Origin: a virus
Lineage: Duplodnaviria; Heunggongvirae; Uroviricota; Caudoviricetes
Reading direction: 5' to 3' (one strand)
DNA length: 9,487 bases
Virus record (IMG/VR): IMGVR_UViG_2645728091_000021
Position 1 is the stretch's first letter. Every line of letters begins with the position of its first letter. Both the position numbers and the translations under genes were made by a program. The notes beneath the pieces were generated by a model, which saw only the letters and a list, made by a program, of their open reading frames with translations, searched no databases and was not told where the DNA came from. Below are positions 3,860 to 8,455 of the stretch, in pieces.

Positions 3860-4051
3860 TTAAAGGCCTGCCGGGATTTCGTTATTGTTCATGCGAATAA
3901 CTTTGTCGACAGGATAACAGTTCCCGGGAATTTTTTGCTCTGCCGCGGCAGTCATGCATTCTTCCATTGAGTCATGTATGTCAATAACAAGATCAATCGG
4001 TTCACCAGAAACAAAAAAAACAGTCAGAACGAGTACAAATGCCGTATTCAT
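3860..4051 (-). CDS. ydfD: YdfD-like small membrane protein (63 aa)
   Basis: Product MNTAFVLVLTVFFVSGEPIDLVIDIHDSMEECMTAAAEQKIPGNCYPVDKVIRMNNNEIPAGL has an N-terminal hydrophobic helix. Its ATG (4051-4049) overlaps the dicB stop (4050-4048) as ATGA, implying translational coupling. Length and position immediately downstream of dicB match my recollection of Qin YdfD. The longer in-frame start at 4105 was rejected. Confidence 0.7.
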   Translation of the reverse strand: MNTAFVLVLTVFFVSGEPIDLVIDIHDSMEECMTAAAEQKIPGNCYPVDKVIRMNNNEIPAGL

Positions 4052-4236
4052 TGCCTGCATCCTGTTTGCATCAGACGTAAACGGGCCAGCATCGAAACAA
4101 TGCATATTTTATTTAGCAGTTCCTGTTCGTGTTTTCTTTTATTAATGGCATCTTCAGTAAATATCTGATTGCTGATAGTGACACCAATTTCAAAACAACC
4201 TTCAGACGTATTAACGTTTGGTAATAACGTTTCCAT
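4048..4236 (-). CDS. dicB: Cell-division inhibitor DicB (62 aa)
   Basis: Product METLLPNVNTSEGCFEIGVTISNQIFTEDAINKRKHEQELLNKICIVSMLARLRLMQTGCRQ is near-identical to my recollection of E. coli DicB (62 aa). GAGGA SD lies 7 nt upstream of ATG 4236-4234. The 97-aa extended ORF from 4341 is not supported. Confidence 0.9.
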   Translation of the reverse strand: METLLPNVNTSEGCFEIGVTISNQIFTEDAINKRKHEQELLNKICIVSMLARLRLMQTGCRQ

Positions 4237-4405
4237 TATCGCGTCCTCAACAATGAATTTTGTGATGCGGTGCCTGGTGCCTCCAGGTGACGTTAACCAG
4301 TTAACAATTAACGCCGGATACAGAGAATCCACCCATAACACTGTTTTTGGTTTTAACTGTTCCGCGTGCGCTGAGCCGCATTCACCGCATCACAAAATTC
4401 ACTTT

Positions 4406-4446
4406 AAAAAGGGCGGACATCAGTTCATGGGCAAACAGATGCCGCC
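4406..4446 (-). terminator. Intrinsic terminator forming the DicF 3' end
   Basis: On the minus strand GGCGGCAUC...GAUG(U)CCGCC forms a ~9-bp stem with one bulge and a 16-nt loop, followed by UUUUU (plus 4406-4410 is AAAAA). Confidence 0.7.
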
Positions 4447-4461
4447 AAACGTCACCAGAAA
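4406..4461 (-). ncRNA. dicF: DicF small regulatory RNA (ftsZ-targeting sRNA)
   Basis: Minus-strand sequence UUUCUGGUGACGUUUGGCGGCAUCUGUUUGCCCAUGAACUGAUGUCCGCCCUUUUU. The 5' ~20 nt and the terminal GCCGCCCUUUUU match what I recall of E. coli K-12 DicF; the central part differs. It lies ~170 nt upstream of dicB, as in Qin. Confidence 0.85.
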
Positions 4462-4765
4462 ATTGATAACAGAGGGCGTTGCAGCGGGGTTGTCACTTAA
4501 GCGTATGGTCAACCTGACAACCCGGTGTCCTCAACGGGGAAGGAATAACCCCGCCATACTTACCGCCGCGCCATTTCGCGGAGTGCCACAACCGGAAGCG
4601 CACGGTCGACGAAAATTTAACGACAGGCTATCTATGAACCAGCTACCTCGCCGTGCGCTTTCGCGTTATGGTCTGACTTTTCAGGGAAATATCCTTTCAG
4701 TAAACTGTCAGTGCCGGATGCTCACCCGTGTCCGGCGCACGCACTCTACCTCACCCGTGAATAAA

Positions 4766-6693: not shown

Positions 6694-7639
6694 ACGCCCA
6701 CTGGTTATAAACACACAGCTTGCGATGAAGATTGGCTTAAATGAAGCCATTGTGTTGCAGCAGTTGCATTACTGGTTGAGAGATACCAGTTCCGGTATGG
6801 AATGTGACGGGGTTCGCTGGATTTATAACACAACAGAACAATGGCTGGAACAGTTCCCGTTCTGGTCAGAGTCAACGTTAAAACGCGCATTTGCAAGTCT
6901 GAAAACGCTGGGGCTTTTGCGTTGCGAAAAGCTCAACAAATCAAAGCGTGATATGACTAATTTTTACACGATTAATTACGAGAGTGAGCTTTTAGATGGT
7001 GGCAAAGTGAGCGAATCCATCAGGTCAAAATGCGCCGCTCCATCGGGTCAAAATGACACGATGGAAGAGGTCAAAATGGCACGATCCATTGGTTCAAAAC
7101 GACCCAATGTCATCGGGTCAAAATGGCCTGATGATCTTACAGAGAATACAACAGAGATTACTACAGAGAATAAAAACACTTCTCGTCCGGAAGCTTCGCA
7201 ACCGGACCCGCAGACGGCTGAACAGGATTTTTTAACCCGACACCCTGACGCGGTTGTGTTCAGTGCGAAAAAACGCCAGTGGGGAAGTCAGGAAGATTTG
7301 GCGTGCGCACAGTGGATCTGGGGACGAATCGTGAGTCTTTACGAGCAGGCTGCCAGCGATGATGGCGAGATCACGCGACCGAAAGAACCAAACTGGACCG
7401 CATGGGCCAATGACGTGCGCACAATGCGGATGCTGGATGGCAGAAGCCACAGACAAATTTGCGAAATGTTTGGTCGGGTACAGCGAGATCCATTCTGGGT
7501 AAAAAACATCATGAGCCCGTCAAAGCTTCGCGAAAAATGGGACGACCTGGTCATCCGCCTGGGGCGTTCACCTGTACAGTGTTGTGTGAATCATATTTCT
7601 GAACCGGATACCGAAATTCCGCCTGGTTTCAGGGGATAA
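6674..7639 (+). CDS. Replication initiator (O-like origin-binding N-terminal domain, DnaT-like C-terminal domain), 321 aa from ATG 6674
   Basis: N-terminal domain MSLLFAERPLVINTQLAMKIGLNEAIVLQQLHYWL...LKRAFASLKTLGLLRCEKLN looks winged-helix-like. An iteron array lies inside the gene (see repeat feature), as for lambda O. The C-terminus ...SEPDTEIPPGFRG matches my recollection of the E. coli DnaT C-terminal tail (...EPDSQIPPGFRG). Alternative starts at 6620 (TTG) and 6632 (ATG) are possible. Confidence 0.8.
   Translation: MSLLFAERPLVINTQLAMKIGLNEAIVLQQLHYWLRDTSSGMECDGVRWIYNTTEQWLEQFPFWSESTLKRAFASLKTLGLLRCEKLNKSKRDMTNFYTINYESELLDGGKVSESIRSKCAAPSGQNDTMEEVKMARSIGSKRPNVIGSKWPDDLTENTTEITTENKNTSRPEASQPDPQTAEQDFLTRHPDAVVFSAKKRQWGSQEDLACAQWIWGRIVSLYEQAASDDGEITRPKEPNWTAWANDVRTMRMLDGRSHRQICEMFGRVQRDPFWVKNIMSPSKLREKWDDLVIRLGRSPVQCCVNHISEPDTEIPPGFRG
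7023..7125. repeat. Replication origin iterons: five copies of GGTCAAAATG-type core at ~23-bp spacing, followed by an A-rich ACAGAGA triple repeat (7139-7172)
   Basis: Cores at 7023-7032, 7046-7055, 7069-7078, 7091-7100 (variant GGTTCAAAAC) and 7116-7125, each within a longer repeated unit (cat-cGGGTCAAAATG-...). Immediately downstream, ACAGAGA recurs at 7139, 7151 and 7163 in an A-rich tract, resembling the AT-rich unwinding region next to the lambda ori iterons. Confidence 0.75.
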
Positions 7640-8163: not shown

Positions 8164-8455
8164 AGCCTACTTGTTGGTTTTGTGTGAAAAGCAGACATTT
8201 TGAGGCTCAGGATTTGTTATCAAATAAGACCAATACTTATCTATATTAATACACATTAAATACTGTGCAATACATTATTGCATTTTATTAGATAAGCGAT
8301 ATTTAGGGAAAAGAAAAGTCATAGAAAACAGGCCGCTATTTGTTGTTGGATTTTATAGGCTATATCTAGATTATCTTGCCACTGCGGTCTCTGTTTACCT
8401 AACAGCTTGGGCTTCTTTGCATGCAAGTTTGTAATAACAAGTGTAATCAAACGGA

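Follow-up and report, generated by a model that had tools for sequence, protein, structure and literature searches.

The prophage genes dicB and kil encode cell-division inhibitors, and their expression kills or arrests the host. Phage transcripts carry well-described RNase III signals, among them the sites of the T7 R1.1 type, the hairpin of the lambda N leader, where cleavage raises N translation, and the lambda cIII leader. We analyzed a 9,487-nucleotide (nt) stretch of Caudoviricetes DNA (the window; IMG/VR record IMGVR_UViG_2645728091_000021), in which dicB lies on the minus strand downstream of a homologue of DicF, a small RNA (sRNA), and a perfect inverted repeat lies between the two. 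The inverted repeat is the closing helix, P1, of a conserved pseudoknotted RNA domain of ~150 nt that is co-transcribed with dicB on the minus strand. The domain is a divergent, leader-type relative of STnc100 (Rfam RF02076), a prophage RNA family that is known but uncharacterized. STnc100 copies are transcribed in enterohaemorrhagic E. coli (EHEC), where a Northern blot has shown one of them (PMC5331693). The sRNA PasD is abundant, depends on Hfq (PMC8550237) and has structural homology to STnc100 (10.64898/2026.05.13.724894), and association with Hfq has been reported for both PasD and EcOnc27 (PMC8550237, PMC12711010). The STnc100 family includes or overlaps these Hfq-associated sRNAs. Our literature search found no paper linking the dicF-dicB or kil leader to STnc100. 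The STnc100/PasD family was already known; support for the pseudoknot is new here, and most lambdoid leader copies have a P1 of about two turns.

The two arms of the repeat, 4254-4272 (TGAATTTTGTGATGCGGTG) and 4383-4401 (CACCGCATCACAAAATTCA), are 19 nt long, 100% complementary and separated by a spacer of 110 nt. Among the inverted repeats listed for the window it ranks first and is the sole perfect one; the number of perfect 19-bp inverted repeats with a spacer of up to 200 nt expected by chance in 9,487 nt is ~7e-6. A partial repeat that shares part of this region (I2, 535-557 versus 4387-4409, 78% complementary) looks like chance similarity from a reading of the region. In the minus-strand RNA, a G.U pair and an A-U pair are added to the repeat, giving 21 consecutive pairs. 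The 5' arm begins 4 nt after the U-tract of the DicF terminator (4406-4411), and the 3' arm stops 17 nt short of the dicB ATG (4236-4234), with a GAGGA Shine-Dalgarno (SD) sequence at 4244-4248; counted from the end of the 21-nt P1 3' strand, the SD and the AUG follow after 8 and 15 nt. The exact repeat, the 4-nt and 17-nt distances and the SD had been described in an initial annotation of this DNA, which was right on each of them. It had also taken the flanking sequence to be conserved beside E. coli dicF, and at least 80% of the 271-nt region 4200-4470 is indeed present in 4058 of 5426 complete E. coli genomes.

The same annotation regarded the 110 nt between the arms as a loop. Folding of the minus-strand RNA, a check that it had proposed, gave a structure of -93.3 kcal/mol (z = -5.9) in which the repeat closes a multibranch structure. 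P1 closes a compact five-way junction with the hairpins P2, P3, P4 and P5, of which P3 is variable, and a pseudoknot connects a loop to the junction. The interior is thus not a loop; it consists of four covarying hairpins and a pseudoknot with invariant loop nucleotides (Table 1). In P2, three pairs switch from C-G to G-C between subfamilies. P5, with the family consensus CCnGG-AGGCA-CCnGG, is preceded by an invariant A (4288) and abuts the P1 3' strand with no nucleotides between them.

Comparison of homologues, likewise proposed in the annotation, supports this architecture. The covariation set comprised 65 homologues and 44 pairs, with 500 column shuffles and slid partners as controls. The fraction of paired cells is 93.8%, versus 71.8% in the column shuffles and 39-45% in the slid controls, and double-sided changes occur in 34 of the 44 pairs, counts that are somewhat inflated by an alignment fitted to the model. 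The covariation score is 0.428 versus 0.123, and none of the 500 shuffles matches the observed value. Ten compensated pairs were already present in an initial ten-sequence MAFFT alignment. For the pseudoknot, complementarity between a copy's own junction and its own loop averages 5.44 nt, versus 3.99 nt for non-self combinations, and none of 5000 permutations reaches the former value. The two halves change together among copies: CAGUCA/UGACUG, UUAACC/GGUUAA, CUAACC/GGUUAG, ACUGGAUA/UAUCCAGU and UGGCCAGG/UUUGGCCG. The fold also explains the tandem GTTAAC-ca-GTTAAC, which the annotation had placed correctly at 4292-4305 and interpreted as a motif. The tandem lies within the P4 segment (4289-4315), and it needs no separate explanation, since its two copies belong to the fold: one is the L4 loop, which supplies the pseudoknot's 3' half, and the other forms the 3' strand of P4. 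In other family members, this second copy is replaced through compensatory change.

The sequence of P1 indicates the strand on which it works. There are two G.U pairs in the K-12 P1 (GAUGUGGUG/CACUGCAUC), one in that of E. albertii and three in the outer helix of Scandinavium. These pairs become A-C mismatches on the opposite strand, which argues that P1 is selected as dicB-sense RNA, the strand that the annotation had assumed. P1 lengths, which we measured by anchoring on alignment columns, differ between groups of copies. Most sampled lambdoid leader copies have a P1 of 19-22 bp, built from several unrelated sequences; unrelated outer arms, seen in Citrobacter and in Klebsiella-type phages, rebuild a helix of equal length, as in Citrobacter (AGCAGGCUUUAAGGUGCGGUG/CACUGCACCUUAAAGUCUGUU, 21 bp) and at loci L136 (21 bp), L240 (22 bp) and L170 (22 bp), and the kil-type P1 has 22 bp with one bulged A. 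P1 is shorter elsewhere: 15-16 bp in three Klebsiella-type copies, 9 bp in the phages resembling bacteriophage P1 (P7, L146 and L248), 9-10 bp in L133-type loci, which have a DicF-like seed and terminator after the domain, and 6-12 bp in canonical STnc100 or sRNA-type copies. A helix of about two turns marks most of the sampled lambdoid intercistronic leader copies, not the fold as such.

The relation to STnc100 was found from both directions. At gathering thresholds, Rfam returned zero matches in the window, and DicF and STnc100 surfaced only in a permissive scan. In that scan, RF02076 matched 4413-4204 on the minus strand (37.7 bits, E = 1.3e-6, model positions 1-206). Its helices and core nucleotides were recovered in the cmscan structure line, by RNAalifold and in an alignment made jointly with canonical members; what the 3' part of the model covers in the window is the dicB start region. 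Conversely, a covariance model (R1) built from ten dicB/kil leader-type copies only recovers L117, L088, L100, L105, L020, L125 and L072 at E values of 1e-12 to 1e-6, and Rfam scores the same positions in these seven loci as STnc100 above the gathering threshold, unlike the leader-type copies. R1 scores 178 bits on the sense strand versus 32.6 bits on the antisense strand.

BLAST searches against phage and E. coli collections revealed that the core is not tied to dicF and dicB in its spread. Rac-like and Stx phages have it ~20 nt upstream of kil/kilR and after a DicF-like terminator hairpin. In phage P7, it is located between tRNA genes and terB/tciA (ban operon). The domain is also present in a Klebsiella phage, and small open reading frames (ORFs) follow it in Klebsiella and Citrobacter phages. 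The distance from the domain to the start codon is 15-30 nt for dicB, kil, rha/ash, terB and other ORFs, and the SD/start context GGAGAUAAYUAUG moves with the domain ahead of different cargo genes. A scan of viral contigs added 120 loci (106 with enough flank to analyze) with 67 distinct leader-type sequences; the ORFs after leader-type copies encode DicB, Kil, a 280-aa Rha/Ash protein, TerB, a DUF5983-like protein and small unknown proteins. At one locus (L136), the domain starts 4 nt past an upstream stop codon. The initial annotation had regarded the repeat as a device that couples DicF to dicB, which does not agree with this range of downstream genes or with the P7 and Klebsiella-type copies, which have no DicF terminator upstream. 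Rather, many lambdoid prophages use the domain as an intercistronic 5' leader between the terminator of DicF or a DicF-like RNA and the ribosome-binding site (RBS) of a gene that is toxic to the host or accessory (dicB, kil or rha/ash, for example).

The domain is also abundant and widely distributed. E. coli carries it in 10,750 places in 4,653 genomes, with up to 9 per genome. We surveyed other bacteria by a pattern scan of one genome per species followed by R1. Close relatives scoring >120 bits were found in E. albertii, E. ruysiae, Shigella, Pseudescherichia, Scandinavium, Klebsiella and Citrobacter, and canonical STnc100 copies scoring 25-62 bits in Kosakonia, Enterobacter, Pantoea, Erwinia, Salmonella diarizonae and others. 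Many matches of the pattern scan in GC-rich non-enterobacterial genomes were due to chance, and none of these fit the covariance model. Canonical STnc100 copies often form head-to-tail arrays and are often located just downstream of tRNA genes and beside isrI (L125, L117, L088, L072, L105 and L100). On a Pantoea plasmid, five copies lie within 1.1 kb (L125, 920-1987), and L117 has four; some copies are 10-12 nt apart.

Combining these results, we propose, with moderate confidence, that P1 is an RNase III or insulation helix that would separate a stable structured RNA from the dicB message. RNA polymerase that passes the DicF terminator would transcribe the domain, and the 21-22-bp P1, equivalent to approximately two turns of A-form helix, would clamp it and allow it to fold autonomously. 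P1 would then be cut by RNase III, or act otherwise as an insulating helix. Three RNAs would thereby be set apart: an upstream RNA containing DicF, a core RNA that is stable and resembles STnc100, and a dicB message whose leader is short. For dicB-type leaders, cleavage could also release an SD that is otherwise partly paired; the predicted probability of an unpaired SD increases from 0.16-0.19 to 0.80 after a simulated P1 cut. Since the length of P1 is near-constant at about two turns, recognition by an enzyme that binds double-stranded RNA (dsRNA), such as RNase III, is suggested. The 21 consecutive pairs agree with the size rule for E. coli RNase III substrates (~20-22 bp of continuous dsRNA), and under the general substrate rules (PMC6212723), cleavage of P1 by this enzyme is plausible. 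The conserved core probably has a function of its own, for instance in protein binding or as a trans-acting sRNA, comparable to that of PasD and EcOnc27 with Hfq (PMC8550237, PMC12711010, 10.64898/2026.05.13.724894).

A number of points weigh against this proposal. Some ORF-preceding copies do without a long P1: it measures 9 bp in P7 and 15-16 bp in a few copies of the Klebsiella type. The folding model predicts an occluded SD in the dicB type, but in none of the kil, Klebsiella and P7 types; the idea that an extended P1 sequesters the SD in general was rejected on this ground. A processing or insulating role alone also leaves the invariant loop nucleotides and the pseudoknot unexplained. The RF02076 score of the window copy is under the gathering score of 47, as are those of its close relatives L121 and L013, and the inflated pair counts mentioned above should be considered as well. 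In the study of Ragunathan et al. (10.1101/2023.04.14.536235), which cites Faubladier 1990, the RNase III site of the operon is located upstream of dicF, where it makes the 5' end of a 190-nt species. That study detected no transcript spanning dicF and dicB under the conditions used, and found no internal promoter. Finally, our literature search found no experimental end mapping of the dicF-dicB intergenic region; in the search for RNase III end mapping of dicF, dicB and kilR, PMC6212723 and PMC5371410 were found to name dicF in their main texts solely as a precedent from earlier work.

Several other explanations have to be weighed against the proposed role of P1. The domain may be a trans-acting Hfq-associated sRNA of the STnc100/PasD/EcOnc27 type that resides within the operon transcript, in which case the repeat would only define and protect its ends and any effect on dicB would be incidental. 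The homology of the fold to STnc100 and the binding of PasD and EcOnc27 to Hfq (PMC8550237, PMC12711010) are consistent with this, and the L133-type loci, with their short-P1 domain followed by a DicF-like seed and terminator, have a typical sRNA layout. The window copy, in contrast, lacks both its own terminator and a single-stranded seed, and an SD and ORF follow at once in every lambdoid leader copy, with the GGAGAUAAYUAUG context traveling with the domain before different cargo genes. On balance, we consider a purely trans-acting role unlikely.

An RNase III-independent insulator or stabilizer appears quite unlikely. It would consist of a folded 175-nt untranslated gap that blocks Rho loading and RNase E scanning, and shields the dicB RBS from upstream structure or ribosome traffic. 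All leader copies are intercistronic, including the one that starts 4 nt after a stop codon, the predicted fold is very stable, and the background given in PMC12711010 cites silencing of kilR by Rho/NusG, all of which would suit such an insulator. However, an insulator has no need of invariant nucleotides in its loops and junctions or of a pseudoknot that covaries, and this role leaves the tandem ORF-less arrays of the domain unexplained.

The conservation pattern raises a third idea, that the RNA is a sensor or a catalyst. Covarying stems, a pseudoknot and invariant nucleotides (J1/2 AAU, L2 UNNGC, the J4/5 A and L5 AGGCA) make up a pattern that resembles those of aptamers and ribozymes; the domain is placed immediately upstream of an SD in the leader type or of a terminator in the sRNA type, and tandem arrays exist. 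In its broad form, the idea would unite the dicB/kil leader, STnc100 and PasD into one widespread class of complex-fold phage RNAs, whose core would be a sensor or catalytic module (ligand or protein binding, or self-processing) that gates host-toxic prophage genes (dicB, kil) and stx-adjacent genes. If this were true, a member of the class between dicF and dicB of E. coli K-12 had gone unrecognized; we regard the proposal as speculative and decidedly unlikely. In its specific form, in which the junction binds a small molecule or protein like a riboswitch, or self-cleaves like a ribozyme, and thereby gates toxic phage genes, it is improbable. No riboswitch or ribozyme family was matched in the Rfam scans, and known riboswitches have a ligand-sensitive P1 of far lower stability than one of 21 bp. 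No conserved mutually exclusive alternative structure was found, with SD pairing predicted in the dicB type only. The terminator in the window precedes the domain and does not follow it, and the cargo genes have no common metabolic theme.

We give little credence to the reading of the initial annotation, in which the repeat is a plain long hairpin with a 110-nt loop, and acts as an RNase III site that matures the DicF 3' end and thereby couples DicF to dicB expression. A perfect duplex of 19 bp (21 bp in the RNA) reaching from 4 nt after the U-tract to 17 nt before the dicB AUG would suit this role, and RNase III does act on this operon (10.1101/2023.04.14.536235). Yet the interior is a conserved multi-helix pseudoknotted domain, which is found, with an equally long P1, ahead of kil and other genes and also where DicF is absent. 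RNase III is known to cut upstream of dicF, and by its title Faubladier 1990 credits DicF production in part to transcription termination; RNase III-dependent maturation of the DicF 3' end is not reported in the literature that we searched. Least credible of all is a DNA-level element, such as a repeat resembling a miniature inverted-repeat transposable element (MITE) or the enterobacterial repetitive intergenic consensus (ERIC), a cruciform, or a recombination site at a module boundary of mosaic phage genomes, which would account for terminal inverted repeats around a ~110-bp core, for its many places in E. coli and for different genes downstream, as expected of a module junction, but which we rejected because the G.U wobbles preserve pairing on one strand only, the antisense score is far below the sense score, the internal helices and pseudoknot covary, the arms show no target-site duplication (AAAG / TTGT), and the orientation always matches the downstream gene at an always syntenic position.

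Table 1. Elements of the RNA domain and its neighbors in the window
Feature	Position	Strand	Basis
P1 5' strand (AGUGAAUUUUGUGAUGCGGUG), includes arm 4383-4401	4383..4403	minus	repeat list, fold, alignment
J1/2 AAU, invariant family-wide	4380..4382	minus	at least 95% identity in 65 sequences
P2 hairpin, 5 bp and one bulged nucleotide, loop UNNGC	4364..4379	minus	alignment, 100% paired, 3 of 5 pairs double-sided
P3: 3-bp base GGA/UCC, pseudoknot 5' half CAGUUAA (4353-4359), length-variable hairpin	4316..4363	minus	alignment
P4 hairpin (GGCGUUAA / UUAACGUC), loop L4 (UUGUUAACUGG, 4297-4307)	4289..4315	minus	9 of 10 pairs double-sided
Pseudoknot 3' half UUAACUG, within L4	4298..4304	minus	alignment, permutation test
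P5 hairpin CCUGG-AGGCA-CCAGG, nearly invariant across the family	4273..4287	minus	alignment
P1 3' strand (CACCGCAUCACAAAAUUCAUU), includes arm 4254-4272	4252..4272	minus	repeat list, fold, alignment
dicB translation initiation region, SD GAGGA 4244-4248 and AUG 4236-4234	4234..4248	minus	ORF list, folding
dicB, 62 aa, cargo gene of the leader	4048..4236	minus	PF05358, annotation of a 99.3%-identical locus
DicF intrinsic terminator tail, C and U5	4406..4411	minus	fold and coordinates
DicF sRNA homologue (seed region and terminator hairpin), upstream neighbor outside the fold	4412..4461	minus	Rfam and minimum-free-energy fold

The genes and RNAs around the domain were identified as follows. RF00039 (DicF) gives a full-length match at 4460-4411 on the minus strand (model positions 1-52, 43.5 bits, E = 3.4e-8). 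This copy (4411-4460) differs from that of K-12 in the hairpin loop and stem and is just under the Rfam gathering score of 48, and it is clearly a DicF homologue. A simple terminator scan found no terminator-like site 3' of the domain; the scan also missed the DicF terminator, because its stem is interrupted. In a modelled read-through RNA, there is weak pairing between the CUUU of the DicF terminator tail and the dicB SD. A promoter scan gave no sigma-70-like promoter nearby on the minus strand. The 62-aa ORF matches the Pfam family DicB (PF05358, E = 4e-39), and a 99.3%-identical locus in E. coli O157:H7 is annotated in RefSeq in the order repressor, ydfC, hypothetical, dicB, DUF1482, exonuclease, xis and int, beside ompW. 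The dicB start codon lies inside a small predicted hairpin (4222-4240 on the minus strand, GAUAAUGGAAACGUUAUU), with a paired probability of >0.9 with or without the upstream leader. A 97-aa ORF with a GTG start (4048-4341 on the minus strand) shares the frame of dicB and crosses the RNA domain before entering the gene. We judged it unlikely to be coding, given the indels, covarying stems and different downstream cargo of homologues.

Further upstream, an imperfect ~22-bp hairpin is present at ~4590-4665 on the minus strand (AACGCGAAAGCGCACGGCGAGG / CGUCGACCGUGCGCUUCCGGUU), ~130-200 nt upstream of DicF. This hairpin probably corresponds to the RNase III site, known from the literature, at which the 190-nt DicF species acquires its 5' end. 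A similar segment, GCGCUUCCGGUUG, is also found upstream of a DicF-like RNA in L170. This DicF-like RNA, which has a different single-stranded 5' part (AUUGCUGUGUGUAGUCUUGGCGG...hairpin...CCGCCCCUUUUU), occurs in Rac-type loci and at several IMG/VR loci (L004 ~2490-2548; L133 ~8260-8340 on the plus strand; L170). It is located upstream of the domain in Rac-type loci and directly downstream in L133-type loci. It has the look of a DicF-paralogous sRNA whose seed differs.

ARAGORN found no tRNA-like gene or transfer-messenger RNA (tmRNA) gene in the window, nor at the elements of seven related loci, one of which (L248) has five tRNAs upstream. At 7018-7133 of the window, five tandem 23-nt direct repeats (CATCGGGTCAAAATG...) are located, by their position, near or within a replication (O/DnaT-like) gene, and resemble the iterons of an origin. 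Two database records show unexpected hosts. In L006, deposited as an Actinobacillus phage, a 28-nt segment comprising the terminator tail and the P1 5' arm (TTTTTAAAGTGAATTTTGTGATGCGGTG) occurs twice, at 2408-2435 and ~2510, and the flanking genes resemble those of an E. coli Rac-type phage. A dicF-dicB region of 94% identity (H61) is found in the record of Aeromonas phage AP1. In both cases, the assigned host looks doubtful.

Our analysis gives dicB, kil and several prophage accessory genes a common leader that is portable, structured and highly conserved. This leader shares its fold family with abundant uncharacterized sRNAs of pathogenic E. coli (STnc100, PasD and EcOnc27, the last of them beside stx2). 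It also provides one concrete RNA for study in the tractable dicBF operon of K-12, and bears on the post-transcriptional control of dicB and kil. For Rfam, the structural model of RF02076 is refined by the pseudoknot, the covariation in P2 and the context-dependent length of P1, and the current threshold overlooks a subfamily that is found in most E. coli genomes.

The domain can be compared with four known systems. The RNase III site already described in the dicBF operon involves the same transcript and the same candidate enzyme; it is upstream of dicF (10.1101/2023.04.14.536235) and distinct from the repeat at 4254-4401. The T7 R1.1, lambda N and cIII signals resemble P1 in being helices of about two turns between early-operon cistrons, just upstream of an RBS, and for the dicB type the modelled cut would free the SD in a similar way. 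These signals are simple hairpins with internal loops, whereas P1 closes a conserved five-way junction with a pseudoknot, and cleavage of P1 is only proposed.

The ERIC repeats (also called IRU, intergenic repeat units) of enterobacteria are likewise imperfect palindromes of ~120-150 bp in transcribed intergenic regions, and the start of canonical STnc100 (GTGAATCCCC) resembles the ERIC consensus. By inspection, only ~10 nt are common to the two; ERIC is a near-complete palindrome, whereas only P1 is palindromic here, and the present element is confined to prophages in a fixed orientation. The fourth comparison is with STnc100, PasD1/PasD2 of enteropathogenic E. coli (EPEC) and EcOnc27/sRNA103 of EHEC. 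The window copy differs from them in three flipped P2 pairs and in a P1 of 21 bp versus 6-12 bp. It also lacks the 3' terminator hairpin of the Rfam model, with an SD and ORF following directly instead, and is located in an early-left operon rather than near tRNAs, stx or lysis genes. In common, all are carried by prophages and have the same order of helices (P1, P2 with UNNGC, a variable P3, P4, and P5 with CCGGG-AGGCA-CCCGG), together with the invariant GGUGAAU and CACCnGGAGGCACCnGGCACC motifs.

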